30,024 nt of DNA from Candidatus Helarchaeota archaeon (GCA_029838215.1 JALGVI010000038.1:1-30024); one strand, 5' to 3'; counted from the first letter of the stretch, positions 12,691 through 28,423 are shown. Notes: a model not told the origin generated them from the letters alone. Numbers and translations: made by a program.

Positions 12691-14166
12691 ATGAGTGAAG
12701 AAATATACGACATAACCGTCATTGGCGGAGGTCCCGGAGGCTACCACGCAGCACTTCGTGCATCTCAATTTGGTGCAAAAGTTGCTCTTATTGAACGTGA
12801 CAAATTGGGCGGCACGTGTTTAAACCGTGGTTGCATTCCTACTAAAGCTCTATATAGCTCAGCAAAACTGGCCGAAGAAATTCATGAAAAAGCGGCAGAT
12901 TTTGGAATCTCCGTTGGAGAAGTAAAACTCGATTTTGCCAAGGCAGTTGAGCGGAAAAACAAGGTTGTAAAAGAATTAGTCGAAGGAATCGAAGCGCTAG
13001 AGAAAAAAGCAAAGGTCGCCATTTTTAAAGGACATGGAAAAATTGTTGGCGGATCCATCGACAGCTATGAAGTTGAGATTTCGGGTGGAGATAACGCCAA
13101 GATAAAAACAAAAAGAATAATCATTGCTACGGGATCAAAACCAGCACTGATCCCTGCTTTTAACATAGATCATGACCGAATTTTAACCAGTGATGACATT
13201 CTTTCGCCAGATTTTAAAACGGTTCCCAATACTCTTCTGATCATCGGTGCTGGCGTCATTGGCTGCGAATTTGCAAATATCTTCCGGACTTTTGGAGCAA
13301 AGGTCATCATGCTAGAATATCTTCCCACGCCAATTGCAACGGAAGAACGACTCGTCATCAATGAACTAAAGAAAAAACTTGTCGGAATGGGAATTGAAAT
13401 TTACGTGAGCCAGAACGTGTTGAAAGTTGAGAATACAGGTTCTGGAGTCCGTGCAACATGTTGCTCCGCAGATGTTCCCAGGGATCAAGTTGATTCGGCT
13501 GAGAAAACAACTTATGATGCTGATATCTGTTTGGTTTCTATTGGACGAGCGAGAGTTTCGGACAATCTGGGTCTTGAGAGCGTTGGCATCGAATCAGATC
13601 GTGGACAAATCAAGTGCGATCCAAAGACTCTTGAAACAGCGGCTAAGGGTATTTATGCAATAGGAGACGTAACAGGAGGCATCATGCTCGCACACGTGGC
13701 AAGTTACGAAGGTGACGTTGCAGTCGAAAACGCACTCTCAAGTATTGGTGGTTTCGACACGCATCCACGAGAAACGGATTATAGCATCGTGCCGGCGACC
13801 ATCTTCACGAGTCCCGAAATCGGTTCTGTTGGATTACGAGAAAAAGTTGCCAAAGAACGTGGCAAGGTATTTGTTGGACGCTTTGCATATGCTAGCCTCG
13901 GTAAGGCGAAATGCATGGGTGAAGAAAAAGGATTCCTCATGGTCATCGGTGATGTTGAAACGGATAAGATCTTGGGCGCATCTTGTATTGGACATGAAGC
14001 ACCAGAGTTGATTGCTGAAATCGCAGCTGCAATGGCAGCAGGAATGACTTGCACGCAACTCGGACACGTCATTCATAGTCATCCAACGATCTCTGAAATG
14101 GTGCTTGAAGCAGTAGAAGATGTTCATGGAATGGCAATCCATAAAGCCGGACGAAAACGGCGCTAA
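12691..14166 (+). CDS. lpdA: Dihydrolipoamide dehydrogenase
   Basis: IGGGPGG, redox disulfide GGTCLNRGCIP, IIATGS, IGAGVIGCE, AIGDV, MLAHVA, HSHPTISE. Confidence 0.92.
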   Translation: MSEEIYDITVIGGGPGGYHAALRASQFGAKVALIERDKLGGTCLNRGCIPTKALYSSAKLAEEIHEKAADFGISVGEVKLDFAKAVERKNKVVKELVEGIEALEKKAKVAIFKGHGKIVGGSIDSYEVEISGGDNAKIKTKRIIIATGSKPALIPAFNIDHDRILTSDDILSPDFKTVPNTLLIIGAGVIGCEFANIFRTFGAKVIMLEYLPTPIATEERLVINELKKKLVGMGIEIYVSQNVLKVENTGSGVRATCCSADVPRDQVDSAEKTTYDADICLVSIGRARVSDNLGLESVGIESDRGQIKCDPKTLETAAKGIYAIGDVTGGIMLAHVASYEGDVAVENALSSIGGFDTHPRETDYSIVPATIFTSPEIGSVGLREKVAKERGKVFVGRFAYASLGKAKCMGEEKGFLMVIGDVETDKILGASCIGHEAPELIAEIAAAMAAGMTCTQLGHVIHSHPTISEMVLEAVEDVHGMAIHKAGRKRR

Positions 14167-14480: not shown

Positions 14481-14945
14481 TTGGATTATATTATTAAATT
14501 CAAATATCCAGCAGGGATGGCAAACAAAGATAAATCCAATTTTATTGACCAGAGAAAGAAATTTGACTTGATTAAAATTAAAAGAACGCAGTACATATTG
14601 GACAGAGAGGATTATTTACAGCCTTTAGAACAATTGGCGAGGAAATTTGGAGTCCAGATGGATGTTACGAATTATCCTGAACTACCGTCCAGTTTGAAAA
14701 AGGTCGTTGAAAAATATCTCGAAGAATCAGAAGTGAGTAAATCTGAAAAAGCAAGCAAAAAGAATTTCGCCACGGTTTGCAGGGCATTTCTTATTTTTTA
14801 TGACATGTATCTTGATTTGTATAAGAATCAAAGGCTTTCAAATTTTAATAAAAAAATTGATGAAATCTTAAACGAACCAGAGCTAAGACAACTTTTGACC
14901 AGCGCTCACTCAATTGCAACCAAAATGAATTCGGAAGTAAATTAA
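14481..14945 (+). CDS. Hypothetical protein, possible N-terminal ferredoxin-like (Cas2/VapD/PaaX-type) fold
   Basis: 154-aa ORF with TTG start, 1 nt before the next gene; beta-alpha-beta-beta-alpha-beta hydrophobic pattern in residues ~2-62 (judged by eye). Confidence 0.6.
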   Translation: MDYIIKFKYPAGMANKDKSNFIDQRKKFDLIKIKRTQYILDREDYLQPLEQLARKFGVQMDVTNYPELPSSLKKVVEKYLEESEVSKSEKASKKNFATVCRAFLIFYDMYLDLYKNQRLSNFNKKIDEILNEPELRQLLTSAHSIATKMNSEVN

Positions 14946-14946
14946 A

Positions 14947-15669
14947 ATGGATGAATTCGAGCGGATTCGAGAAGAACGACTACAGAAACAAAAGGAATTA
15001 AAGGAGAAACGAGCAGAACAAAAACGTCGCCGTCAAAAAGAAGATAATAAAAAAACAAAATTCAAGTCCCAACAACTAATTTCTGAAACAGAAGAATTAC
15101 TCAGAGAACAAAAGATCCAAACAGAGTTATTAAAACAACTCATAGGGCTCCTTCAAGACAAAAACATGGTAAGGCATGCTGAAATTAAAGAAGTCTCGGA
15201 TTCTAATGAAATAGAAATGCTAATAACTCGTTATATAAAAGGCGAATTACCTCACGACACCCTTCCGCCTAATAAAACACATCGTACTTATCGAGATGAT
15301 GAATTTGTCGAGCGTCTTCAGCATGAATGGAACATCTTAATTAATAAGGCGAATGCAAGGGCAACGAGAAAAAAAATGGTGCAAGATGGGGAATTGGTAC
15401 CGATAGGTTATCTTAGATACGTGTTACCAAAATTCATCAATGAACATGAGCAAAAATTTTCACAAAAAGATGCAAGTATCATTCAATGGTTGAAAAAACA
15501 TTCTCAGTTCTCGAGCTCAGAATTTAAAAAGGAATTTTATCCCAATTCTCCTCGGGGGGTCGTCTCCGCAAAAATTCATTCATTAATGAGCAAGGGTTGG
15601 ATCGCGCGTGTTCGGCGCGCCCATTATGAAACAACCAAAGCAATTCCCGATCCGCAGCTGAATGATTGA
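14947..15669 (+). CDS. Hypothetical protein with N-terminal charged coiled coil and C-terminal winged helix-turn-helix
   Basis: E/K/R/Q-rich N-terminus; C-terminal IIQWLKKHSQFSSSEFKKEF...VSAKIHSLMSKGWIARVRRAHYE matches a wHTH pattern. Confidence 0.65.
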   Translation: MDEFERIREERLQKQKELKEKRAEQKRRRQKEDNKKTKFKSQQLISETEELLREQKIQTELLKQLIGLLQDKNMVRHAEIKEVSDSNEIEMLITRYIKGELPHDTLPPNKTHRTYRDDEFVERLQHEWNILINKANARATRKKMVQDGELVPIGYLRYVLPKFINEHEQKFSQKDASIIQWLKKHSQFSSSEFKKEFYPNSPRGVVSAKIHSLMSKGWIARVRRAHYETTKAIPDPQLND

Positions 15670-15752: not shown

Positions 15753-17060
15753 ATGGAATTTGATATTGTTATTATTGGTGGTGGCATTGCTGGGTGTTAT
15801 GCCGCAATTGACCTTGCGAAGTTAGGTAATACGGTAGCCCTGATTGAGAAAAAGCCATTCGTGGGAGGGATGACGAATCAGATTGGACAGGCATATCCAA
15901 CAAATGATTGCGCTTCATGTTTAAGTCCAACGGCATTTCATTTTCAGGAAGAGGGTTTTCGTAAGTGTTTTCCATTAATGAATTTTGAGCCATTTCAAAA
16001 TGTGGATCTTTTTACTCTCGCAGAAGTGAAAGATATTCAAAAGATCAATTCAAGATTTCAAATTACGTGGGATGTAAAACCTCGTCATGTTAATGAGAAT
16101 TGTAATAATTGTAAGGACTGTGAACGTGCCTGTCCACGTGAAGTCGAAGATGAATTTAATTGTAAAATGACAAAGCGAAAATTAATTTATTTACCTCATC
16201 CAAATGCAATCCCTCCTGAACACGTGGTTGACAGGGAGAAATGCGGAGATTGTGAGGGATATTGCGCAGATGCCTGTCCCCAAAAGGCAATTGATCTAGA
16301 TGAAAAAACAAAATCAATTAAGGCCACGGCAAAAAGCATTATTATAGCCACGGGATTTTCAGAAGCCAAACCTAAAATTTTAAAATCATTTGGATTTGGT
16401 CAACACGAAAATGTCTTGACGCAATTAATGCTCGCAAGATTCCTTGATCCTTGGGGTCCATCACGAGGAAAACTACAATTTCTCGAAACACGTCATCCTG
16501 TCAATTCAGTTTTAATGAGTTTTTGTACGGGCTCGCGTGACCGACGATATTATGACTATTGCTCCAAAATTTGTTGCGCTTATGGTTTAAAGCATGCATT
16601 GATATTACGCGATCAAGGAATTGACGTCACCATTTGTTACATGGATTTACGATTAGAAGGATTGGCATCTACATATTACGAGCAAGCAAGAGAAAAAAAT
16701 ATTAATTTTATACGAGGGAAAGTGGCTTCAATTGAACGCGATCCCAAAACTCATGAATTGTGCGTTCACGTGGAGGATACCTTTCGATCTGAAGTTATCT
16801 CCTTTTTCGTCGATGCAGTAGTTTTAACTCCACCTTTAATTCCTGCTGAAAAAACAGGATGGCTGGCTTCAAAGTTAGAAATTCTTATTGATGAAAATGG
16901 ATATTTTGATCCCCCTCAATTAAGAACCACGCCTGTAGAAACTTTGAATCCAGGAGTATTCGTAATTGGTTGTGCTCAGGCACCCATGGATTTGGCACAA
17001 GTAAGCATCCAAGTGAACGCGGCGGTACTAAAAATCCAACAATATTTGGAGGAGATCTAA
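15753..17060 (+). CDS. HdrA-family flavoprotein with QmoA-like architecture (FAD domain + inserted ferredoxin; no N-terminal HdrA domain, no C-terminal ferredoxin)
   Basis: IIGGGIAG at the very N-terminus; EKKPFVGG; YPTNDCASC; CNNCKDCERACP and CGDCEGYCADACP; IIIATG; FCTGSRD...YCSKICC; YMDLR; GCAQAPMD. It ends where QmoA ends. Confidence 0.85.
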   Translation: MEFDIVIIGGGIAGCYAAIDLAKLGNTVALIEKKPFVGGMTNQIGQAYPTNDCASCLSPTAFHFQEEGFRKCFPLMNFEPFQNVDLFTLAEVKDIQKINSRFQITWDVKPRHVNENCNNCKDCERACPREVEDEFNCKMTKRKLIYLPHPNAIPPEHVVDREKCGDCEGYCADACPQKAIDLDEKTKSIKATAKSIIIATGFSEAKPKILKSFGFGQHENVLTQLMLARFLDPWGPSRGKLQFLETRHPVNSVLMSFCTGSRDRRYYDYCSKICCAYGLKHALILRDQGIDVTICYMDLRLEGLASTYYEQAREKNINFIRGKVASIERDPKTHELCVHVEDTFRSEVISFFVDAVVLTPPLIPAEKTGWLASKLEILIDENGYFDPPQLRTTPVETLNPGVFVIGCAQAPMDLAQVSIQVNAAVLKIQQYLEEI

Positions 17061-17062
17061 CC

Positions 17063-19117
17063 ATTACAACAGGTATTATCCTTGGAAGCACCCGAAAAGC
17101 CATGACGATCGATAAAGACTATCTAATTCAAGAATTGAATGAGAGAGATATTCCCTGTATTTATATTTCGAAGCTTCTTTCTAGCGGAGCCTTGGAGCAA
17201 ATTACTCATTTCATCGAAAAAAATGAGATCTCACACTTGATTATTGGTACTTCTGAAAGGTCAAGGATACTTGCTACGATTCCATCCCGATTCCCAAAGA
17301 TAATTTTTGAGGTAATCTCTCTTCCCGAAGTTCTAATTAATGCTCCAGAAACGTTACGAACGAGATTAACAAGGAATGCTCTTCAATTATTATTGGCAGA
17401 AAGTGAGGCAATCTCATTGAAAACACAAATTGAGGGACTGGAATTTTCATTGGAACAAGCGATAGCGATTATTGGGGGTGGACTTGCTGGAGTTGAAGAA
17501 GCAATCTTACTTTCTCGTTATTTCCAAGTTTATCTGATCGAAAAAAATGACCATTTGGGTGGAAATTTATACCAAGATAAATTTTTATATCCTACAGGTC
17601 AGAAATCACGAAATCTCATTCAAGAAAAAATCAAAACGATGCACGAAAAGGAAAATATCACAATCTTTCTCAATTCTCGAATATTAGACGTAGCAGGAGG
17701 TCCCGGTCAATTCGATATCGTTTTTGAGGATGAAGAAGGGCAACATGAAATTAGAGTCGGTGCCGCCATTATTTCAACGGGATTTACGGAATCAGGTCTT
17801 CCAAACGAATTTGATAAAAACCCTAGAATCATCACGCACCAACAATTGGGAGAAATCATTACAGATGGAAATATTGGATCTTTTTTCACCGATGGTTCAC
17901 GAAAACAAGTTCTATTTGTTGATTTAGAAAATCAGGAGCCTTATGAACTTCCCACGGTTTACATGCTCTCTCATGCAATTCACCTGCTAAATGCAGGAAT
18001 CGAAACCATTATTGTCACTAAAAATATTTATGCGTCATATAAATTCGAAAATCTTTATCAAGAAGTAAGGAAATTAGGAGGGCAGTTCATAAATGGTTCA
18101 ATTCAGAAGATCCAACAAGATTCGACTTCCTTTTTTTCAGTTGAAATTAATAGCGAACTTACAAAAGAAATGGTCATTGCTAAACCCGATCTCATTGTTT
18201 TATCCACGTCTCTTCGTCCTTCTTTAGAAACAGTCGATTTATTGAAGATCATGGATATTTTTCAAGACGATCGTTCTTTTATCTTTACACCTTATCCAAA
18301 ATTGAACCCGACATGGACTGGTAGAGAAGGAATTTTAATGGGTGGAAGTGCATGGCGACCGATGACAATCCCCACTACGTTAGCTCATGCTTCTGCTGCC
18401 GCTTTTCAGGTTCATCAATATCTAACCCGGCGACAAGCACGATTTAGGACACATTTGGCAGTTGTAGACGAAAAGCAATGTATTGGTTGCCGAATTTGCC
18501 AGCATTTCTGTGCATTCAAAGCAATCGAGTTTAAGATTCCGGACGAATCTTCTGTCCCAAATGAAAATTGTCTCGTTGCAGAAATCAATGCAGAACTATG
18601 CAAGGGATGTGGTGCTTGCATGTCCGTTTGTCCGACAGGTGCAGTTCAGCTCAAAAATTTCGATAGGGAATATTTATTTAAAAAAGTCGAAACGTTGATG
18701 AATCTCATAAAAGCAGATAATCTTAAAGAACCCGTTATAATTGGCTTTACTTGTCAAGAATGCGCAGGTCGGACTTTAGAACTTCTCAAAAAGGTTGAAA
18801 TTTCGCTACATAAATCTTTTTATAACTTTCTGGTTCCTTGTGCAGGACGCTTGGGAATCATTGATCTACTAAAACCATTAGTTGAAGGAGCTGACGGCGT
18901 ATTAGTATTCAAATGTCCTGATGCGTCATGTCATTATTTCACGGGAAGCACGATTGCACGAATGACCGTTGAATTTGCCCAGAATATTCTTGAAGAAATA
19001 GGACTGCAGAAGTACAAGATTCAAGCCTGTGACGTGATTGCGGTAAGACCGGGTAGATTCGAAACATGTATTGAAACCATGCTTTCACAAATAATAAAGA
19101 ATAAAAGCACACATTAA
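17063..19117 (+). CDS. Degenerate HdrA fused to MvhD (QmoB-like architecture)
   Basis: Cys-less HdrA N-terminal domain (GIILGST...IIGTSER); IIGGGLAG; EK..HLGG; IISTG; lost CxGSR..CC motif; C-terminal CIGCRICQHFC and CKGCGACMSVCP; MvhD motifs FTCQEC, VPCAGR, CPDASCHY. Start is uncertain: ATT 17063 by homology and SD, first ATG at 17102. Confidence 0.8.
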   Translation: MTTGIILGSTRKAMTIDKDYLIQELNERDIPCIYISKLLSSGALEQITHFIEKNEISHLIIGTSERSRILATIPSRFPKIIFEVISLPEVLINAPETLRTRLTRNALQLLLAESEAISLKTQIEGLEFSLEQAIAIIGGGLAGVEEAILLSRYFQVYLIEKNDHLGGNLYQDKFLYPTGQKSRNLIQEKIKTMHEKENITIFLNSRILDVAGGPGQFDIVFEDEEGQHEIRVGAAIISTGFTESGLPNEFDKNPRIITHQQLGEIITDGNIGSFFTDGSRKQVLFVDLENQEPYELPTVYMLSHAIHLLNAGIETIIVTKNIYASYKFENLYQEVRKLGGQFINGSIQKIQQDSTSFFSVEINSELTKEMVIAKPDLIVLSTSLRPSLETVDLLKIMDIFQDDRSFIFTPYPKLNPTWTGREGILMGGSAWRPMTIPTTLAHASAAAFQVHQYLTRRQARFRTHLAVVDEKQCIGCRICQHFCAFKAIEFKIPDESSVPNENCLVAEINAELCKGCGACMSVCPTGAVQLKNFDREYLFKKVETLMNLIKADNLKEPVIIGFTCQECAGRTLELLKKVEISLHKSFYNFLVPCAGRLGIIDLLKPLVEGADGVLVFKCPDASCHYFTGSTIARMTVEFAQNILEEIGLQKYKIQACDVIAVRPGRFETCIETMLSQIIKNKSTH

Positions 19118-19133
19118 TAAGGACGTTGTTAAA

Positions 19134-19592
19134 TTGGTAGAAAAATCAATAAAAGACAAGAGAGAAGTTGTCAGGGATTTATTGAAAAAATTAATGATCA
19201 AAATGCCGGAGAATCCCGTGGCAGTTCCTCAACACGTCCGTGGTTTTGGCACGATTATAATAAACACGGAAGAGTGTTTATCTTGTGGTGCCTGTTTGCA
19301 TATTTGCATCAGCCAAGCAATGAGTATTGAAAGAATATTTGACATGGAGACCCTACGGAAACAAGCAAGCAATCCACATTACCAGAATCGTTTGATATTA
19401 TTGCGTTTCATTGAAAAATTGGGTAATGTATCCAACGAAACACGTTTTAATGTTCCTGCAGGATTGATCTGCTTCGGAAAGCATCAATTAAATCTAAAAG
19501 ATTGTGTTTTTTGTGAAGATTGCATCGAAATTTGCCCTTTTAAAGCCATAACATCAGAGAGATTATTGGATTTAAAAGAATATTTGGACTGA
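19134..19592 (+). CDS. [4Fe-4S] ferredoxin-like protein built from two tandem half-modules
   Basis: CLSCGACLHIC and CVFCEDCIEICP, each preceded by R..L..L..KL...VP....FG and followed by A...ER..D; TTG start. Confidence 0.75.
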   Translation: MVEKSIKDKREVVRDLLKKLMIKMPENPVAVPQHVRGFGTIIINTEECLSCGACLHICISQAMSIERIFDMETLRKQASNPHYQNRLILLRFIEKLGNVSNETRFNVPAGLICFGKHQLNLKDCVFCEDCIEICPFKAITSERLLDLKEYLD

Positions 19593-19893
19593 AGATCCAT
19601 TGAATACCACCGCAGAAACACGAATTCCATGAAGAAATCAAACGTTGGAACAGCATGAATTACTTTGCAAAGTTTTCTCTTTTCGATCGTGAGAGAAATT
19701 CTTGGCTACGGAATTTTAACGATTATCTTTCGTAACTTTTAAAAGAATTTTTTTGTTAGTGATACCAAGTACATCAATAGCATTTACTAAATTAAAAAAT
19801 ATCAAACATATCATATACTACATTATTCAAGCACGTGCAATAATTTTTTGAAGCCACTTTAGCTTCAAAACTAGTAAAAAGAGTTGTTTCAAG

Positions 19894-20490
19894 ATGCTTT
19901 CCAAAGATAAACAAGTAATAAAAAATCCTGATTCTGAATTCATTGATGAAGTTGTTGAATACGTTAAATCCTTCTTTGGTGACGATGCAGAACGCTTGAG
20001 AGCCTGCATCCAATGCGGAACATGTACAGGCGGTTGTCCTTCAGGACGTAGAACTGCTTGGCGCACGAGAGTGATTTTCCGTAAGGTTCAGATGGGGCTC
20101 AAGAAAGAAGCACTCAGCGAACCAGAGCTATGGGATTGCACGACCTGTTATACATGCCAAGAACGATGCATTCGTGCCATTCCTACAACAGACATAATTC
20201 GATGCTTGCGAAATATTGCATTTCGAGAGGGTCTTGGCATTCAAAATGCTCACGTATTCGTGGCAAATCTTCTTGGGAAATTTGGTCATGCCGTTCCTGT
20301 CAATGATCCAACAAAGGCAGTAAGGAAGAAAATTGGTCTTTCCGAGCTTCCACCAACGGTTCATTCCTATCCCGATGGTCTCGAAGAAGTCAAAACTCTC
20401 CTTCAAGAAACAGGATTTATTGATGCTGTGAAAAAAATCGAAGAGATAAAAGCAAAAGAAAAAGAAGAAGCGGAGAAGAAGAAAAAATGA
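19894..20490 (+). CDS. hdrC: Heterodisulfide reductase subunit C
   Basis: CIQCGTCTGGCPSGRRT, LWDCTTCYTCQERC, GHAVP; ATGA overlap with hdrB. Confidence 0.93.
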   Translation: MLSKDKQVIKNPDSEFIDEVVEYVKSFFGDDAERLRACIQCGTCTGGCPSGRRTAWRTRVIFRKVQMGLKKEALSEPELWDCTTCYTCQERCIRAIPTTDIIRCLRNIAFREGLGIQNAHVFVANLLGKFGHAVPVNDPTKAVRKKIGLSELPPTVHSYPDGLEEVKTLLQETGFIDAVKKIEEIKAKEKEEAEKKKK

Positions 20491-21389
20491 CCGAGTCTGC
20501 AAAAAAATATTCGTATTTCTTAGGGTGTCTCACGCCCAACAGATATCCGGGCATTGAAAAAGCGACTTTGGAAGTTTTAAGGCGATTCGACATTGAACTT
20601 GTCGACATGAAAGGAGCCAGTTGCTGTCCCGCCCCGGGCGTTTTTGGATCTTTTGATTTAAATACATGGATGACTGTTGCAGCGAGAAATCTTACGATTG
20701 CAGAAGAAAATGGTGCTGATATTATCACAAATTGTAATGGATGTTATGGGTCTCTTCAGGAAACGAACCATCTAATGCATGGAAATAAAGAAAAACGCCA
20801 ATACGTGAATGAAAAATTAGCAAAAATTGGAAGGACCTATAAGGGGACACAAACGGTCTATCACGTGGTTGAAGTTTTACGTGATGTCATTACAATTAAA
20901 GGAATAAAAGATGCAGTTGTCCAACCACTAACGGGAATCAAAGTTGGCATTCATTATGGTTGCCATTTTCTAAAACCTTCCAAGGTTCGAGGACAAGGCT
21001 CATCAGAAGCTCCCACCGTTCTGGAAGACATTGTCCGCGCAATTGGTGCAGAACCCGTTGAATACCGGGATAAGCTAATGTGTTGCGGTGCCGGTGGTGG
21101 AGTTCGAGCCGCTTTTAAAGATGTTTCTCTGGATTTTACGAAAACTAAGGTCGAAAACATGCTTGCAGTGGGAGCTGATTGCGTGACGACACCTTGTGCA
21201 TTCTGTCACTTCGAATTTGACGTAGGTCAAGACGAAATAAATAAGGCCCAAGGCACGAATTTACAACTTCCAGTAGTCTTCATCACACAATTAGTCGCTT
21301 TGGCAATCGGCATTGGACCCGAAGAAATAGGATTATTTGATCAAACTACTCAGGTTAAAACATTCTTAGATAAAATCGGAAAAGCATAA
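20487..21389 (+). CDS. hdrB: Heterodisulfide reductase subunit B
   Basis: YFLGCLTPNRYPGIE, SCCPAPG, CNGCYGSL, HYGCH, CCGAGGGVR, PCAFCHFEFD. Confidence 0.95.
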   Translation: MTESAKKYSYFLGCLTPNRYPGIEKATLEVLRRFDIELVDMKGASCCPAPGVFGSFDLNTWMTVAARNLTIAEENGADIITNCNGCYGSLQETNHLMHGNKEKRQYVNEKLAKIGRTYKGTQTVYHVVEVLRDVITIKGIKDAVVQPLTGIKVGIHYGCHFLKPSKVRGQGSSEAPTVLEDIVRAIGAEPVEYRDKLMCCGAGGGVRAAFKDVSLDFTKTKVENMLAVGADCVTTPCAFCHFEFDVGQDEINKAQGTNLQLPVVFITQLVALAIGIGPEEIGLFDQTTQVKTFLDKIGKA

Positions 21390-21405
21390 AGTGAGTTGTT
21401 GAAAG

Positions 21406-23394
21406 ATGACTGAAGAACCAAAAATCGGAGTATTTATTTGCCATTGTGGATCCAACATTGCAGGTGTCGTTGATCCCAAAGTTCTGGCAGAATACGCAAA
21501 AGGACTCCCAAATGTCATTCATTCCGAAGATTACAAATTCATGTGTTCCGATCCAGGACAAGATTTAATTAAAAAAGCCATAAAAGAAAAGGGTCTCACG
21601 CGAATAATTGTTGCAGCTTGCAGCCCCCGCATGCATGAGCCAACATTCCGTAGAGTATGTAATGAAGCGGGTCTAAATCAATTCTTGTTTGAACAGGCAA
21701 ACATTCGCGAACATTGTACATGGGTAAACATGCGAGAACCCGAAAAAGCATTAATAATTGCAAAGGACAACATAAGAATTGCCGTTGCAAAAGCGAACAA
21801 TTTAGAAGCATTAATTGCCAAAAAAGTGTCAATAAAACCCACGGCATTAATTCTTGGAGGCGGCATTGCAGGAATAAGCGCAGCTTTAGACATAGCGGAT
21901 TCGGGATATCAGGTTATAATGGTCGAGAAGAATCCATCAATTGGCGGCAAGATGTCTCAGCTCGATAAGACATTTCCAACGATGGATTGTTCAGCTTGCA
22001 TTCTCACTCCAAAAATGGTTGATTGTTTCCAGCATCCCAACATTGAATTACATACCTATACAGAGCTTGAAGATGTTTCCGGATTTGTCGGTAATTTTCA
22101 AGTTAAATTACGGAAAAAAGCTCGCCACGTCGATCTTGAGAAGTGCACGGGTTGCGGAGAGTGTGCTCAACATTGTCCCGTAATTGCACCTAATGAGTTT
22201 GATTTGGGAATGAGCCCTCGAAAGGCATGTTACATTCCTTTTCCGCAGGCGGTGCCTCTTGTCTATACGATTGATGATGACTATTGTATTAAATGTGGAA
22301 TTTGTGCACGCAAGGAAGTATGTGAACCAGAGGCAATCAATCTCGATGAAAAAGACAAGATTATCGAAAAGGAAGTTGGCACAATCATAGTTGCTTCGGG
22401 GTATGAAGTCTTTGATCCTTCGGTAGCCCTTGAGCAATATGGTTTTGGACGATATGAAAACGTGATAACGGGTCTCCAAATGGAAAGATTATTAAGCTCC
22501 TTTGGACCTACTGAAGGCAAAGTCAAGCGCCCTTCGGATTTAAAGGATCCTGAAAAAGTTCTATTCATTCAGTGCGTTGGTTCCCGAAATCAACAAGAAG
22601 GTTGCAATCCTTATTGTAGCCGCGTGTGTTGCATGTATTCGACAAAACATGCTCGACAATATAAAGAAAAACACCCAGAAGTTCAATTGTACATTAGTTA
22701 CATGGACATTCGTGCCTTTGGAAAAGGCTACGAAGAATTTTATGAACGAGCACAACGTGAATATAATGTTAATTATATTCGTGGTCGAATTGCAGAGATT
22801 TATGAAGTTCCTGAAACTAAAAACTTGATTGTTCGGGGAGAAGACACGTTCTTAAGACGCCCATTTGAGCTAGAAGTTGACATGATTGTTTTGGCTGTAG
22901 GGTTGGTTCCTTCACCCGAATTAGGCAAGATCGTAAGAATCTTGAATCTTTCTCAAGGGACAGATGGATTTCTCTTAGAAGCCCATCCGAAATTACGGCC
23001 TGTTGATACTTTAACCGATGGTATCTTCGTGGCTGGTGCAGTCCAAGGTCCAAAAGATATTCCCGATACGGTAGCCCAAGCAAAGGGAGCGGCCTCTGGT
23101 GCAATTTCTCTGATGGCGCGTGGTGAAATTGAAATTGAACCGTATTTCGCAGTCGTAAATGAAGCCCTCTGCAGCGGTTGTCGAACATGTGAACTACTCT
23201 GTCCATTTGGAGCAATTGAAATGTTACAGTGTGGAACAGGATTACGCGCATGGATAAATGATGCCCTCTGTAAAGGATGTGGAACTTGTGTAGCGGCTTG
23301 TCCTGCAGGTGCAATTAAGCAGAACCATTTCAGCGATCAACAGATATATGCACAAATCATAGCTGCTTTAGAAGAAATAGGAGGAGAAGAATAA
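21406..23394 (+). CDS. hdrA: Heterodisulfide reductase subunit A (canonical, Cys-encoded)
   Basis: KIGVFICHCGSNI, FMCSDPGQ, AACSPRMHE, NIREHC, GGGIAG, KTFPTMDCSACILTP, inserted 2x[4Fe-4S], QCVGSR..YCSRVCC, C-terminal CSGCRTCELLCP and CKGCGTCVAACP. Confidence 0.97.
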   Translation: MTEEPKIGVFICHCGSNIAGVVDPKVLAEYAKGLPNVIHSEDYKFMCSDPGQDLIKKAIKEKGLTRIIVAACSPRMHEPTFRRVCNEAGLNQFLFEQANIREHCTWVNMREPEKALIIAKDNIRIAVAKANNLEALIAKKVSIKPTALILGGGIAGISAALDIADSGYQVIMVEKNPSIGGKMSQLDKTFPTMDCSACILTPKMVDCFQHPNIELHTYTELEDVSGFVGNFQVKLRKKARHVDLEKCTGCGECAQHCPVIAPNEFDLGMSPRKACYIPFPQAVPLVYTIDDDYCIKCGICARKEVCEPEAINLDEKDKIIEKEVGTIIVASGYEVFDPSVALEQYGFGRYENVITGLQMERLLSSFGPTEGKVKRPSDLKDPEKVLFIQCVGSRNQQEGCNPYCSRVCCMYSTKHARQYKEKHPEVQLYISYMDIRAFGKGYEEFYERAQREYNVNYIRGRIAEIYEVPETKNLIVRGEDTFLRRPFELEVDMIVLAVGLVPSPELGKIVRILNLSQGTDGFLLEAHPKLRPVDTLTDGIFVAGAVQGPKDIPDTVAQAKGAASGAISLMARGEIEIEPYFAVVNEALCSGCRTCELLCPFGAIEMLQCGTGLRAWINDALCKGCGTCVAACPAGAIKQNHFSDQQIYAQIIAALEEIGGEE

Positions 23395-23849
23395 TGACTG
23401 AAGCAAACACCAAGTCAAAATCCGCTTCAAATGACGAAGAATGGGACCCATTTATTCTCGGTATTTTCTGCAATTGGTGTTCTTATGCTGGTGCAGATCA
23501 GGCAGGAACATCAAGAATGCAGAGACCTGCAAACTTGCGCATAATTAGAGTCATGTGTAGTGGACGAGTTGATCCAACATTCATTCTCACGGCTTTGAAA
23601 AAGGGAGCTGATGGCGTTCTAATATGCGGATGCCACATCGGAGACTGTCATTACGTGCAGGGGAACTACAAGACCGAACGTAAGATTCCAATTTTAAAGC
23701 GCTTGATCGAACAGCTTGGAATTAATCCAAGGCGAATTCGGTTTGAATTCATCAGTGCTTCAGAAGGCGCGGAATTGACCGAACTCGTGAAGGAATACGT
23801 GGAAGAAATTCGTGAGATCGGACCTTCTCCATTCCGTAAAAAGCAGTAA
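23394..23849 (+). CDS. mvhD: Methyl-viologen-reducing hydrogenase delta subunit ([2Fe-2S])
   Basis: FCNWCSYAGADQAG, VMCSGRVDP, GADGVLICGCHIGDCHY, ISASEG; TAATG overlap with hdrA. Confidence 0.95.
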   Translation: MTEANTKSKSASNDEEWDPFILGIFCNWCSYAGADQAGTSRMQRPANLRIIRVMCSGRVDPTFILTALKKGADGVLICGCHIGDCHYVQGNYKTERKIPILKRLIEQLGINPRRIRFEFISASEGAELTELVKEYVEEIREIGPSPFRKKQ

Positions 23850-23864
23850 TACCGCATTAAATCA

Positions 23865-23896
23865 TTCTTTCTTTTTTATTTTTCTCTTGTTTCTTT
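23865..23896 (+). terminator. T-rich terminator
   Basis: Pyrimidine/T-runs beginning 16 nt after the mvhD stop. Confidence 0.45.
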
Positions 23897-24100
23897 GAAT
23901 TTTCCCGTTCTTTGATAACATAGTCATATCGTATTTTATAATAACATTCATCATTAAAGCTAATAGATGGCTTGATTTTGACGTAATTGCAAAAATATTC
24001 CTGATCCTTGAATGAAGATTCCTCTTCAAAATTGTTGTGAATATTCTAGTTAAACTTAAGAATAAATTTTCATTACATTGACTCAATCAATTGATTAAAA

Positions 24101-24166
24101 ATATATTTACTTTAACACGGAGGAACCGAGAAGGGTCCTCATTTTTACGTGAAAAGGTAAAAATAT
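24101..24166 (+). other. Imperfect 66-nt stem-loop in the mvhD-mvhG intergenic region
   Basis: 24101-24119 pairs with 24148-24166 (15/19 Watson-Crick + 1 G-U). Inner stem GAGGAACC (24120-24127) / GGGTCCTC (24133-24140) pairs 7/8, with loop GAGAA and a 7-nt 3' bulge. Confidence 0.5.
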
Positions 24167-24259
24167 ACAACAAACAAAAAAATTGGATTTTCAAACTTTA
24201 TTTAAAAATTGAGAAAATGAAATCATTGAACCAAAATTGAAACAACGGTCGTGATTTTG

Positions 24260-25624
24260 ATGAAACCAATATCTGTTTGTTTGATGCAACTCAGCTCTTG
24301 CTGGGGTTGTTATCAAAGCTTACTCAACCTCCATTTGGAACTACTTGACGTACTACCATTGCTTGACATTAAGTTCTGGGCTGCAGTAGTTGACACGAAG
24401 TACGAAGACTTGGAAGCGATGCCTGACGGCTCTATCGATTTAGGCATCATTGAAGGCCAAGTCAGAACAAAAGAAGACAGACATCACGTGCTATTAACTC
24501 GTCAAAAATGCAAGGTTGTCGTTACATTAGGAAGTTGTCCTCAATTCGGGAGTGTTCCCGGACTAAGTAACCTTTTCTCCATTGATGAATTGGTTGAACG
24601 TAAATTTAGCACCGCAGATTCTATTTCCTCTGGAGGAGGCGAACCAAAAGAAAACGTACCAGGATTCTGTGAGAAAATTGTTCCCGTACAGGATATAGTT
24701 CCTGTTGAAGGTGCAATTCCTGGTTGTCCTCCTGTTCCAGCAAACATTAAAGCAGCTCTCGTTTGGGCCCATCAACTATTTAATGATGTCCTATACCAAG
24801 ATTCAAATGTTTGCGAATCCTGCGAAATGCGTGGAGACGCTTGCATATTGAACAAAGGTGGACTTTGTTTTGGACCAATCACGGGAATGCCGTCCGGACA
24901 AAAATGGACTGCAAAAATGGGTCCGGTCTTGGGCGAATATGGTCCCACTGCAAAATTAGCAGAACCAGAAGCTCAAAAATTAAAAGATCTTGTTTTGAGC
25001 GTGCCTGCCTTAAACGAGAAACTTATAAAACAAATTTTAGAATTTGCAACGTTATACTTCCGACTTCCACAAATAGGTTCCATCTATTTGACTGACGATC
25101 TCCTCCAAAAAGTTAGCTTACGGCTCCAAGAATTTAGTCCTGCAGCATTGAATGATCATGGTGCAACTAAAGACTTGCCGCAACTTACGAAGGACATCAT
25201 TGGAAATGCACTTTTGAAATTAAGCAAGGATGACAAATTTCAACCGGGTCTTAAAACTGTTTGTGCACACTGCTATCGTAACAAGGAAAACAAACAACTT
25301 AAAGGACTCAAGCGAAACTACGAAGGCGTTTCAGATGCAGATACTTGCTTACTTGAGCAAGGTTACCTGTGCATGGGTATTGTTACCCGTGCTGGCTGCG
25401 GAGCACTCTGCCCACAAGTGGGCGCAGTATGTGCAGGATGTTATGGTCCAGCTCCAGAATTGAAAGATTCAGGTGCTAAATTCCTCAGCGCAATTGCATC
25501 AGTAAGCACTCAGCTTTCAATCGACGAAATCCTTGACAAAATAATAGATCCTGTAGGTACATTTTATAGATTTAGCTTGCCTGCAAGTACAATATCTGAG
25601 AAGGTGTTGGATAAAAAGGGGTGA
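24260..25624 (+). CDS. mvhG: Elongated MvhG-like [NiFe]-hydrogenase small subunit
   Basis: LSSCWGC, EGQVR, LGSCP.FG..PGL, IPGCPP, distal CAHC...CLLEQGYLCMG..TRAGCGALCP....CAGCYGP, FYRFSLP; contains an extra Cys motif and a long insert. Start GTG 24251 or ATG 24260. Confidence 0.85.
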   Translation: MKPISVCLMQLSSCWGCYQSLLNLHLELLDVLPLLDIKFWAAVVDTKYEDLEAMPDGSIDLGIIEGQVRTKEDRHHVLLTRQKCKVVVTLGSCPQFGSVPGLSNLFSIDELVERKFSTADSISSGGGEPKENVPGFCEKIVPVQDIVPVEGAIPGCPPVPANIKAALVWAHQLFNDVLYQDSNVCESCEMRGDACILNKGGLCFGPITGMPSGQKWTAKMGPVLGEYGPTAKLAEPEAQKLKDLVLSVPALNEKLIKQILEFATLYFRLPQIGSIYLTDDLLQKVSLRLQEFSPAALNDHGATKDLPQLTKDIIGNALLKLSKDDKFQPGLKTVCAHCYRNKENKQLKGLKRNYEGVSDADTCLLEQGYLCMGIVTRAGCGALCPQVGAVCAGCYGPAPELKDSGAKFLSAIASVSTQLSIDEILDKIIDPVGTFYRFSLPASTISEKVLDKKG

Positions 25625-25629
25625 AATGA

Positions 25630-26127
25630 ATGTCCTGGGATATGAATTTTAGAAGAAAAGTACTGGATAAGCACCAAGACATTAACTTGCAATATTGTTA
25701 TCAATGTTCTAGGTGTGTTAGAGAATGTCCCGTATCAGCCATTGTTGGTGATGACGTCTATAATCCTCGCCGAATAATTTTAAATGCTTTCTTAGGACTC
25801 AAGGATGCCGTCATCAAGTCCAAAGACGATAATGTCAACTTATATGCCTGTACATACTGTGATACTTGCGATGAAGTCTGTCCTTCTAACATTGAATTGA
25901 CAGAAATCTTCTATCTGTTGAAAAATATCTCTCTTGCAGAAAACAAAGGTCCTGAATGGCCAATTGCTCAAGCAAAAGTCATCTATGAAAATGGTCTGGC
26001 GATTCCAATGCAAGCAGCCATCGAAAAACGACGTGAAAGAATGGGTTTGAGCGGATTACCTGCTCCGGACGTGTCCGATATCCAAACTATCTTAAAAGAA
26101 ACAGGAGTGGCTGAATTATTAAAGTAA
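25630..26127 (+). CDS. hdrC: Second heterodisulfide reductase subunit C-like protein
   Basis: CYQCSRCVRECP, YNPRRII, CTYCDTCDEVCP..I.L.E, NGLAIP...KRRE.MGL. Confidence 0.85.
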   Translation: MSWDMNFRRKVLDKHQDINLQYCYQCSRCVRECPVSAIVGDDVYNPRRIILNAFLGLKDAVIKSKDDNVNLYACTYCDTCDEVCPSNIELTEIFYLLKNISLAENKGPEWPIAQAKVIYENGLAIPMQAAIEKRRERMGLSGLPAPDVSDIQTILKETGVAELLK

Positions 26128-26137
26128 GGTGATAAAG

Positions 26138-26956
26138 ATGGCAGATATGAAATTGTTTTTAGGATGCGTTATTCCAAATCGTTTACCATTTTTAGAAGCA
26201 TCTTCACGAAAAGCCTTCGAAAAACTGGGAATCGAAACAAGCGATGCACCGTTTAGCTGTTGTCCCGATCCTGTCGGTTTCCAAACTGTTAGTCAGGATG
26301 CATGGCTTGCAATGGGTGCTCGAAATCTTGCACTTGCGGAAAGTGAAGGCAAGGACATTGTTTCTCTCTGTAACGGATGCACGCAGACATTAGTTGCGGT
26401 TAATCATGAACTGAAACATGACGAAGACAAAAAGGCGGAAGTCAATGAAGTTCTAAAAAAGGTGAATAAGAGCTATAATGGCGGTGTAAAAGTAAAACAC
26501 TTCGTAGAAGCACTTGCAGAACTCGGAGTCGATAAGATCAAGAATGCTGTTACCAAACAATTGAGCAATCTTAAAGTTGCTTGCCATCCAGGATGCCACT
26601 TCTTCCGTCCATCTAAAATCATGAACGGAAATACACAGGCAATCAAGGATATCGTAGCAGCTACGGGTGCAACAGTAATCGATTATTCTGAAGAAGAATT
26701 ATGCTGCGGAAATGGTGCAACAAATACCGTTAAGGAAACAGGAGATGCAATCGCAAAGAAGAAAATTGACAGTGCAAAAGCAGCAGGTGCTAACGTCTTA
26801 TGCGTTGTTTGCCCGGCTTGTTTTCAACAACTCGATACTAAAAGAGAAATACCTATCGTCTATCTAACGGAGCTTTTGGCTTTGGCAATGGGTGAAACAT
26901 TCGATTCTTTGAACATGAAGTTTCATGCAGAAAAAAGCCTTAAAAACATCCTCTAA
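26138..26956 (+). CDS. hdrB: Second heterodisulfide reductase subunit B-like protein
   Basis: LFLGCVIPNR, SCCPDP, LCNGC, HPGCH, CCGNG, VCPACFQQLD. ATG 26138 follows a GGTGA SD; GTG 26129 is the alternative start. Confidence 0.88.
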   Translation: MADMKLFLGCVIPNRLPFLEASSRKAFEKLGIETSDAPFSCCPDPVGFQTVSQDAWLAMGARNLALAESEGKDIVSLCNGCTQTLVAVNHELKHDEDKKAEVNEVLKKVNKSYNGGVKVKHFVEALAELGVDKIKNAVTKQLSNLKVACHPGCHFFRPSKIMNGNTQAIKDIVAATGATVIDYSEEELCCGNGATNTVKETGDAIAKKKIDSAKAAGANVLCVVCPACFQQLDTKREIPIVYLTELLALAMGETFDSLNMKFHAEKSLKNIL

Positions 26957-27172: not shown

Positions 27173-27901
27173 ATGAAAATATTAAGACTTAATTCGCCGA
27201 ATAATCTCAAAATCACGAGCTTTTCGCTAAGAAATATTATCATTTGGACTTGCCTAGAGTTTTTGTCGATTTGGTTAATAACCACGGGAACTCTAAGCAT
27301 TATTTTATATATTCAAGCCAGTTCATATCTCATTCCGATCTTTTTCGTAAATATCCTGTTTTTCTTGAACATCGTTGGATTAAATCTTCTAAGTTGGGTG
27401 TGTTTTTATTTTGTTTCAGGTCTTCTATGCATTTTCAGTTTATCTCGTCTTGGAAAAATTGATGAAGCAATAATTTCTTCAAATACAATCCAAATAAAAA
27501 AACGGAGATGGTTTTTCAAAAATCAAATCTTGGAAATTGAACCCGACGAACTGAAATCCATTCAAATCATTCAAGACTCGACAAGTGATCACGCTACTCT
27601 TTTCTTGGAATCACGTGAGCACGATGGAGTCACGATTGCAACCACTTATGGTAAAGAGGGAATAAAGGAATTAAACACGTTGGGAAAGGAGATTCATGAA
27701 CTTTTTCCTTCTTCAAAATTAGTTACTTGTAAATATGTTGATCCTGCACCACCTGAAGAAGAAAATCAAAACCCGCCTGCAGAAATCGTTTCAGTCCGAA
27801 CTTGCCCTAAATGCAAGATCAACATTCTGGATAATGCAGGCACGTGTCCGAACTGCGGTTTCATCTTTAAGAAAATCGAAAAGGTCGAAAACAAACAATG
27901 A
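27173..27901 (+). CDS. Membrane protein with soluble beta-rich domain and C-terminal zinc ribbon
   Basis: Hydrophobic stretch at residues ~22-92; Pro/Glu linker; CPKC...CPNCGF; ATGA overlap with the GTPase. Confidence 0.7.
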   Translation: MKILRLNSPNNLKITSFSLRNIIIWTCLEFLSIWLITTGTLSIILYIQASSYLIPIFFVNILFFLNIVGLNLLSWVCFYFVSGLLCIFSLSRLGKIDEAIISSNTIQIKKRRWFFKNQILEIEPDELKSIQIIQDSTSDHATLFLESREHDGVTIATTYGKEGIKELNTLGKEIHELFPSSKLVTCKYVDPAPPEEENQNPPAEIVSVRTCPKCKINILDNAGTCPNCGFIFKKIEKVENKQ

Positions 27902-28423
27902 AAGAATACAAGGTTAAAATACTACTCGCAGGTACAGGAGCATCGGGAAAAACGGCATACTTGAAAAAATTACTAGATAATCAGTTCAAAAAAGAATACG
28001 AAATGACAATGGCAGGCGAAATTAAACTCAAACAAATAAAATACGATGAAGACACGAACATTCAAATCATATTACATGATTTACCGGGCGAGGAACGATT
28101 CCAACCGGCACGACTCGGCACGACTTTCGCTAATTGGAGGAAGTGATGGTGCCTTGGTTTTCTTTGACCTGACTCGATATCCTTCATTCAATCCCGGACT
28201 TCCTAACCGAATAAAAGAAATCTGGTACAACTTAAAAAAACGCATACCAATTGTTGTCGTGGGAACGAAAAAGGACATGGATTTATACCGCTCTATACGA
28301 CCAATCCCAAATGAAGCAAGCAATTTCGAAATCTCTGCTAAAACGGGCGAAAACATCGAAAAACCTCTAAAAGCTCTTCTTGATGAGATCATTTCCCGTA
28401 AAAGAGAAGCAGAAAATGATTAG
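27898..28423 (+). pseudogene. Ras/Rab-like small GTPase split by a frameshift (10-bp tandem duplication)
   Basis: Frame 1 carries KILLAGTGASGKT (G1), T (G2) and DLPGEERF (G3). Frame 2 carries GSDGALVFFDLT, VVGTKKD (G4) and EISAKTG (G5). Removing one copy of CGGCACGACT (28106-28115 / 28116-28125) restores a 171-aa ORF. Confidence 0.88.
28106..28125. repeat. Perfect 10-bp tandem duplication CGGCACGACT x2
   Basis: Read directly from the sequence. Confidence 0.97.

Follow-up and report, generated by a model that had tools for sequence, protein, structure and literature searches.

Does an 11-kb array of heterodisulfide reductase (Hdr) genes that includes a hydrogenase small-subunit gene, mvhG, and no catalytic large subunit move electrons independently of H2, or does it belong to a hydrogenase encoded elsewhere in the genome? 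The array in question consists of ten co-oriented genes on a stretch of 30,024 bases (the window), which is the whole of contig C92 of a Candidatus Helarchaeota assembly (GCA_029838215.1; G000, with other genomes labelled G001, G002, etc., and loci labelled L004, L127, etc.) comprising 170 contigs (94% complete, estimated contamination of 6.2%). The source lineage is a Helarchaeales-type Asgard archaeon of the class Lokiarchaeia. An earlier reading of the window by itself (the original prediction) had described a complex without catalytic input, in which MvhG links to a second HdrBC pair. Our data confirm that all ten genes exist as open reading frames (ORFs; defined under table 11) with strong family matches in Pfam and NCBIfam scans, that mvhG (ending at 25624) and hdrC2 (starting at 25630) are separated by the reported gap of 5 nt, and that family scans of the 30,024-base contig detect no [NiFe] large subunit, formate dehydrogenase or FrhB-type gene. 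In contrast, the proposed H2 independence did not survive a search of the remaining genome, where group-3c vhuA, vhuU, hycI and hyp genes are all present. We consider, with moderate confidence, that the best overall explanation comprises three modules, a remote vhuA-vhuU pair and an H2-linked branching scheme. The three modules are as follows:

15753-19592, plus strand, module 1 (hdrA'-hdrA''::mvhD-ferredoxin)
19894-23849, plus strand, module 2 (hdrC1-hdrB1-hdrA-mvhD, canonical)
24260-26956, plus strand, module 3 (mvhG-hdrC2-hdrB2)

Whole-genome searches of G000 returned one locus only for NiFeSe_Hases (PF00374), at C49:14349-15659, and one locus only for Oxidored_q6 (PF01058), namely the mvhG of the window. 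The former is a full-length group-3c mvhA, i.e., vhuA. Its product of 436 aa covers the VhuA model end to end (452 bits, versus 161 bits for the best group 3b model, ShyA) and scores 406 bits to 9sfi_g, 342 bits to MvhA (5odc_F) and 106 bits to sulfhydrogenase. The L1 nickel-binding motif, PRICGICPIPH, contains the RxCGxC pattern. The C-terminal ligand motif is not present in the VhuA chain and is supplied by a separate gene:

C49:15681-15871 (= L004:9682-9872), vhuU, unannotated, 50 codons with an in-frame TGA

Lying 22 nt downstream of vhuA, vhuU reads MSEEIPEGLLNLLEMVVRNYDC-U-LSCAAH with TGA as selenocysteine (Sec, U), so that the C-terminal nickel-ligand motif takes the form DC-U(TGA)-LSCAAH. 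This Sec motif is kept in 12 relatives, with Cys instead of the usual Pro before Sec in 11 of them and DP-U in one. The gene ends in GGAUGA, whose AUGA also serves as the stop codon, and a 9-bp hairpin comes next. Folding gave this hairpin weak z-scores (-1.2 to -1.6), and Rfam at gathering thresholds returned no match across the window and the vhuA locus, missing the Loki-type selenocysteine insertion sequence (SECIS). We regard the hairpin as a putative Loki-type SECIS on account of its conservation with changed stem sequences and of its published description: Mariotti et al. 2016 (PMC4989117) describe Lokiarchaeota Vhu/Hdr selenoprotein genes with a lokiSECIS whose AUGA is the stop codon. 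Lineage and enzyme there are the same as here, including a VhuU of about 50 aa with one Sec.

The genes for maturation are also present. A search of G000 that covered the HycI-type protease, HypD, HypE and HypF found hycI, hypD, hypE and hypF together on C85, all above their cut-offs (HypD, 455 bits; HypE, 404 bits; HypF, 763 bits), i.e., both the Hyp proteins and the endopeptidase typical of group 3c. The GC content and 4-mer composition of C49 and C85, as well as of C27 (see below), are typical of the genome. From these genes, G000 is predicted to encode a complete, maturation-competent group-3c [NiFeSe] hydrogenase, and we hold it very probable that the system is H2-linked. Within the genome, this single hydrogenase stands beside a heavy load of Hdr paralogues (at least 12 MvhD, 15 HdrA-like, 6 HdrBC and 25 HdrD-like loci). 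Separation of vhuA from mvhG is shared by G000, G001, G002 and G004, vhuA being 54-71% identical in these relatives, and it is fairly likely that vhuA-vhuU has been relocated away from module 3 in this lineage. In one of them, a further hdrC-hdrB pair comes after the relocated vhuA-vhuU (L040, G004:C208), meaning that both operon halves carry hdrCB there. We also observed a second, distant hydrogenase cluster at L042-L045 (G011, G003, G002 and G004), in which the VhuA-like protein is 26-29% identical and which includes a short MvhG-like gene, with an HdrA-like::MvhD fusion lying upstream; its counterpart was not found in G000.

The partner of this large subunit would be the long MvhG of module 3, which contains the following features:

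24260-25624, plus strand, mvhG, long form of 454 aa (Oxidored_q6, E 6e-20; VhuG, 236 bits)
24797-25249, plus strand, insert within mvhG, a partial duplicate of the C-terminal two-cluster domain plus a helical segment
25630-26127, plus strand, hdrC2 (TIGR03290, 81 bits, under the cut-off)
26129-26956, plus strand, hdrB2 (CCG domain, E 1e-29; TIGR03288, 223 bits, under the cut-off)

By phmmer, MvhG residues 7-171 and 331-452 align to VhuG/MvhG, leaving an insert of about 150-160 aa between them, and the protein exceeds its methanogen counterparts by some 160 residues. Four cluster Cys in the N-terminal domain and eight in the C-terminal domain are invariant in 15 orthologues, i.e., the proximal, medial and distal cluster ligands of a group 3c small subunit are all in place. 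Foldseek ranked 5odc_E, the MvhG of 5ODC, at the top and returned MvhG and other small subunits only, with no separate match for the helical insert. Alignment of the insert with the C-terminal domain by hhalign gave a probability of 99% (E 2.7e-18), the match being its Cys-rich first part. All eight duplicated Cys are kept in most class members; here and in this order only the first four occur (C185, C188, C195 and C203), which are invariant in the 15 orthologues. A long MvhG of 435-475 aa was found in 38 of 41 class relatives, and the insert occurred in 41 of the 43 genomes sampled from families f4 and f5, compared with 4 of ~157 in other families of the phylum, where matches were weak. As judged from this distribution, the duplicated cluster domain appears to be almost confined to this class. 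Named relatives of the long MvhG include Ca. Helarchaeota Hel_GB_B, LW55_61, many Promethearchaeota/Lokiarchaeia and Ca. Lokiarchaeum ossiferum. In a quick tree, used for placement and paralogue clustering only, the window MvhG groups with Helarchaeales sequences of G005, G006 and LW55_61, and the hdrA-adjacent paralogues cluster. Separately, a long mvhG paralogue with all eight duplicated Cys occurs at L030:9098-12854 (G010) and L031 (G032), where the next genes encode an Amidohydro_3 protein of 578 aa and an HdrC-like ferredoxin, with no adjacent large subunit.

To describe the surroundings of this gene, we counted cluster forms over 80 named Asgard loci, considering co-oriented genes around mvhG; the loci other than those listed were cut by contig ends:

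mvhG-vhuA-vhuU-hdrC2-hdrB2, 21/80 loci
mvhG-vhuA-hdrC2-hdrB2-vhuU, 10/80 loci
mvhG-hdrC2-hdrB2-vhuA-vhuU, 4/80 loci, including Ca. Lokiarchaeum ossiferum
mvhG-hdrC2-hdrB2 only, 9/80 loci
mvhG-hdrB2 without hdrC, 7/80 loci
mvhG alone, 15/80 loci

An HdrB2 orthologue lies within the mvhG cluster in 51 of the 80 loci, and hdrC2-hdrB2 is invariably the Hdr copy inside the hydrogenase operon. Its position between vhuA and vhuU in some loci argues for co-production of all five proteins. Moreover, mvhG-hdrC2-hdrB2 is directly followed by vhuA-vhuU in G005, G006, G017, G038 and Ca. L. ossiferum; within the order of the window, G005 and G006 have this arrangement, and G000, G001, G002 and G004 carry vhuA-vhuU elsewhere. 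Among ~60 loci in which mvhG adjoins vhuA and/or hdrB2, the window is the only one with hdrA and mvhD within 4.5 kb. We think it reasonably probable that module 3 represents the electron-transfer half of a module found across the Lokiarchaeia and made up of mvhG, vhuA, vhuU, hdrC2 and hdrB2. Coupling of MvhG to a second HdrBC, as originally predicted, is thus backed by synteny (the 51 loci above), and the different disulfide assigned to that pair goes as far as fitting the divergence of HdrB2. Another neighborhood was noted at L033:1914-10789 (G016), which holds mvhD, a polyferredoxin, Fwd/Fmd-like molybdopterin subunits, fdhD, a zinc-ribbon gene and mvhG; this mvhG is directly followed by hdrB2, without hdrC or vhuA, and the same mvhG-hdrB2 pair recurs in six further loci.

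That HdrB2 diverges from HdrB1 was reproduced (CCPDP/CCGNG versus CCPAP/CCGAGGG; 35% identity). Both sets of CCG motifs are present in altered form, and HdrB2 scores 195 bits to methanogen HdrB versus 361 bits for HdrB1. This lower likeness to methanogens fits a different disulfide substrate. HdrB2 orthologues are 47-67% identical, compared with the 35% identity to HdrB1. With its Cys motifs present and a TIGR03288 score of 223 bits, below the cut-off of 345, HdrB2 is by these measures an HdrB homologue that is not to be filed as a CoB-CoM-specific equivalog. Its partner HdrC2 scores 61 bits to HdrC of 8rvv and 5odc.

Module 2 provides the canonical counterpart, with the following genes:

19894-20490, plus strand, hdrC1 (TIGR03290, 197 bits, cut-off 160)
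20487-21389, plus strand, hdrB1 (TIGR03288, 407 bits, cut-off 345; motifs CCPAP and CCGAGGG)
21406-23394, plus strand, hdrA (HdrA2 model, 895 bits, positions 1-643)
23394-23849, plus strand, mvhD (FlpD, E 9e-52; VhuD model positions 1-131 of 132)

Against HdrB of 9sfi and of 5odc, HdrB1 reaches 361 and 358 bits, respectively, and it has both CCG stretches together with a TIGR03288 score above the equivalog cut-off. The hdrA gene is full length and intact under table 11, with no in-frame TGA, and mvhD starts on its stop codon (23394). Unlike the Lokiarchaeota Sec genes of PMC4989117, hdrA-mvhD of the window is the Cys version. On sequence grounds, this hdrA is the canonical bifurcating flavoprotein. 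In other genomes, hdrC1-hdrB1-hdrA-mvhD stands beside mvhG in co-orientation (G001, L077 and L082) or divergently (seven loci), and mvhG copies adjoining hdrCBA-mvhD there come without vhuA and without hdrC2B2. A solitary mvhD, 78-80% identical to that of the window, adjoins mvhG-hdrC2-hdrB2 in G002 and G004. As for the substrate, PF02745 and PF02241 detected Acr/Mcr-like alpha (N-terminal domain, 192 bits) and beta (232 bits) genes at G000:C27:60566-63067; PF02249 (McrA C-terminal domain) gave no match on G000, a false negative, since the other two families found alpha and beta. HdrB1 probably handles CoM-S-S-CoB, which is plausible because the genome has this Acr/Mcr-like reductase.

In the scheme that we propose, H2 would be split or formed at VhuA/VhuU, and electrons would travel along the iron-sulfur chain of MvhG. 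From there, one branch would lead via HdrC2 to the divergent HdrB2, where a disulfide or dithiol would be reduced or oxidized, probably via the extra Fe-S arm and without HdrA. The other would run via MvhD to HdrA, where flavin-based bifurcation or confurcation would involve ferredoxin and HdrB1C1. The single MvhG of G000 would serve both branches.

Given an H2-linked system, direct wiring of MvhG to HdrC2B2 strikes us, from gene order and protein sequence, as slightly short of an even chance. It is favored because, throughout the class, the five genes form a self-contained module, because the duplicated cluster domain is conserved, and because MvhG-HdrB2 pairs without hdrC exist. More tentative is the wider proposal that Lokiarchaeia possess an HdrA-independent H2:disulfide (or dithiol:H+) oxidoreductase, in which the MvhG arm would deliver electrons to HdrC2B2 acting on a non-CoM/CoB disulfide, MvhG being here a hub that also feeds an MvhD-HdrA-HdrB1C1 route serving the alkyl-CoM reductase. 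Several points weigh against direct wiring. The only pointers to electron transfer from MvhG to HdrC2 are gene order and the extra domain. The four of eight duplicated Cys in this MvhG weaken the notion of a two-cluster arm. An AlphaFold2 model of MvhG built from 15 orthologues (pLDDT 68) is confident in the insert and falls below 50 for residues 330-404, i.e., in the canonical cluster domain, so that it is not usable for cluster geometry. Among longer MvhG relatives (801-2285 aa), no fused MvhG-Hdr protein was found, which is weak evidence. A non-bifurcating H2:disulfide reaction wastes energy in the H2-oxidizing direction, and the H2-forming direction is unfavorable for a -140 mV disulfide (standard potentials). 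Finally, the mvhD 410 nt upstream of mvhG, the flanking mvhD in G002 and G004 and the mvhG paralogues beside hdrCBA-mvhD make the conventional MvhD-HdrA route fully possible. That route is at the heart of a plain methanogen-type MvhAGD-HdrABC, in which HdrB2C2 would be a second isoform that docks on HdrA just as HdrB1C1 does, its place in the operon would reflect nothing more than co-expression, and the MvhG insert would be structural or stabilizing, with no part in electron transfer. All canonical components of such a complex are encoded and intact, with mvhD and hdrA immediately upstream of mvhG in the window, and the solitary mvhD that flanks the module in G002 and G004 is highly conserved. 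Methanococcales also have HdrB1C1 and HdrB2C2 isoforms in Vhu/Fdh-Hdr complexes (chain names of PDB 9sfi), and the Asgard enzyme is annotated as MvhADG-HdrABC in PMC7015854 and PMC11291895. We nonetheless judge this explanation unlikely, given that ~59 of the ~60 loci with mvhG adjoining vhuA and/or hdrB2 have no hdrA-mvhD within 4.5 kb, that the Hdr copy inside the hydrogenase operon is always hdrC2-hdrB2, that the eight duplicated Cys kept in most of the class argue for functional extra clusters, and that hdrB2 can accompany mvhG without hdrC.

An H2-independent bifurcating or confurcating complex, with no catalytic input subunit and MvhG as a pure electron wire, would account for a 30-kb contig without a large subunit, and Lokiarchaeia do have mvhG paralogues without adjacent vhuA, located beside hdrCBA-mvhD or beside an amidohydrolase and an HdrC-like gene, implying that MvhG-like proteins may act as wires elsewhere. 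For the locus studied here we consider it highly improbable, as the genome has one large subunit, the intact vhuA-vhuU, to match its one small subunit, it also has hyp and hycI genes, orthologous mvhG-hdrC2-hdrB2 directly precedes vhuA-vhuU in the five genomes named above, and vhuA is well conserved (54-71%) in the relatives where it is likewise unlinked. An assembly or binning artefact, whereby the vhuA-vhuU contig would be a contaminant or the separation of mvhG and vhuA would be a mis-assembly, deserves thought in a 170-contig assembly with 6.2% estimated contamination; it has, in our estimation, very little chance of being correct. More specifically, vhuA lies 14 kb inside a 37.8-kb contig whose GC content and 4-mer composition match the genome, another 3 kb of unrelated genes stand between hdrB2 and the contig end, G001 (an assembly of 10 contigs), G002 and G004 likewise have vhuA unlinked from mvhG, and the ranking of relatives by VhuA similarity parallels that by MvhG.

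With regard to known systems, all subunit families of methanogen MvhAGD-HdrABC and VhuAGDU-HdrABC (PDB 5ODC, 9SFI, 9SW2 and 8RVU) are present in G000. As in Methanococcales Vhu, the large subunit is split into VhuA and a Sec-containing VhuU, and as in methanogen Mvh/Vhu-Hdr, MvhG has 12 canonical cluster Cys and HdrB two CCG motif sets. In contrast to methanogens, hdrC2-hdrB2 lies inside the Asgard hydrogenase operon and hdrA-mvhD usually outside it, the gene order differs from mvhDGA(B), the MvhG insert duplicates the two-cluster domain of the protein, there are two different HdrBC pairs, and vhuA-vhuU is on another contig in G000. Publications on Asgard archaea, both cultured and uncultured, annotate the enzyme as 'MvhADG-HdrABC' (PMC7015854, PMC11291895 and PMC6478937), and group-3c hydrogenase and Hdr genes have already been reported for Helarchaeota; within the searchable portion of that literature, we found no account of a relocated vhuA-vhuU, of a duplicated domain in MvhG or of hdrCB placed within the hydrogenase operon. 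Mvh/Vhu-Hdr is cited in PMC7015854 as the sole hydrogenase that cultured Asgard archaea have, with a central role in their syntrophic H2 metabolism.

Current models of eukaryogenesis build on the syntrophic H2 metabolism of Asgard archaea. Should their hydrogenase come with a divergent HdrCB of its own and a lengthened small subunit, the textbook scheme drawn from methanogens may misdescribe how these archaea use or produce H2, and it may also fail to tell which disulfide they cycle. Since the module is present in the cultured Ca. Lokiarchaeum ossiferum, the question is directly testable. More generally, when a catalytic subunit seems missing from a fragmented genome, a genome-wide search that allows for selenocysteine recoding should precede any proposal of H2 independence.

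The remaining part of the array, module 1, comprises three genes:

15753-17060, plus strand, hdrA' (HdrA FAD/thioredoxin-reductase core with an inserted ferredoxin domain)
17102-19117, plus strand, hdrA''::mvhD (HdrA-like protein fused to MvhD; FlpD domain, E 3e-21)
19134-19592, plus strand, ferredoxin with two [4Fe-4S] motifs, NuoI-like (Fer4 matches)

The hdrA' product matches NCBIfam HdrA2 (E 6e-95, model positions 141-560) and, by phmmer, residues 146-557 of 9sfi_A (260 bits), and it lacks the N-terminal and C-terminal HdrA domains; orthologues in G003, G005 and G006 are 44-45% identical. The fusion protein, which likely starts at ATG 17102 in a frame open from 16970, matches Fer4, Pyr_redox_2 and NAD_binding_8 as well as HdrA and MvhD chains in the PDB, and is laid out as a Cys-poor N-terminal domain, a dinucleotide-binding motif and an HdrA C-terminal ferredoxin domain. 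We had considered hdrA' and hdrA''::mvhD as one frameshifted hdrA, an idea that was rejected because relatives carry the same two genes with ~65 nt between them. The three-gene operon is kept in G003, G005 and G006, on contigs other than that of mvhG, and ferredoxin orthologues directly follow hdrA''::mvhD in L127-L129. The single 11-kb supercluster originally envisaged is thereby not upheld, block 1 being an independent operon, and we are inclined to view the Hdr genes of the window as three separate, independently conserved modules that happen to be neighbors. Between modules 2 and 3 there is a spacer:

23850-24259, 410 nt, AT-rich spacer (from reading the sequence)

This spacer contains neither an ORF nor an Rfam match, and probably holds a promoter region.

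Functionally, module 1 would form an asymmetric HdrA pair, in which an FAD core is combined with an HdrA-like::MvhD fusion and its own ferredoxin. We take it to resemble Qmo: like QmoAB of sulfate reducers and Methanosarcina HdrA2 (an HdrA::MvhD fusion), it has a short HdrA-like flavoprotein followed by a longer HdrA-like protein ending in MvhD. Unlike Qmo and HdrA2, it lacks HdrBC as well as a membrane subunit of the QmoC or HdrE type, and a soluble ferredoxin with two [4Fe-4S] motifs takes the third place in module 1 and in L127-L129. With no QmoC membrane or HdrCE-like subunit adjoining module 1, membership of the Qmo family is not established.

Several other genes of the window were recorded. 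A dihydrolipoyl dehydrogenase gene at 12691-14166 (TIGR01350, 467 bits, cut-off 409) lies 1.6 kb upstream of module 1, separated from it by two ORFs (14481-14945 and 14947-15669), and may be relevant to a possible lipoyl-disulfide link of Hdr systems. For these two ORFs and for that at 27173-27901, Pfam and NCBIfam returned no family, with a zinc-ribbon hint in the last only. At 27-1193, the window encodes one of the at least 25 HdrD-like paralogues of G000, an HdrD/TfrB-like protein that combines a two-[4Fe-4S] domain with two CCG domains. The radical-SAM protein at 1622-3235 scores 421 bits with the tetraether lipid synthase Tes model, slightly under the cut-off of 450, and 282 bits with the selenoprotein TrsS model. 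Finally, two overlapping ORFs in different frames, at 27898-28146 and 28046-28423, encode a small GTPase of the Ras/Roc family, an Asgard-type eukaryotic signature protein; the split may reflect a frameshift, a pseudogene or a sequencing error.

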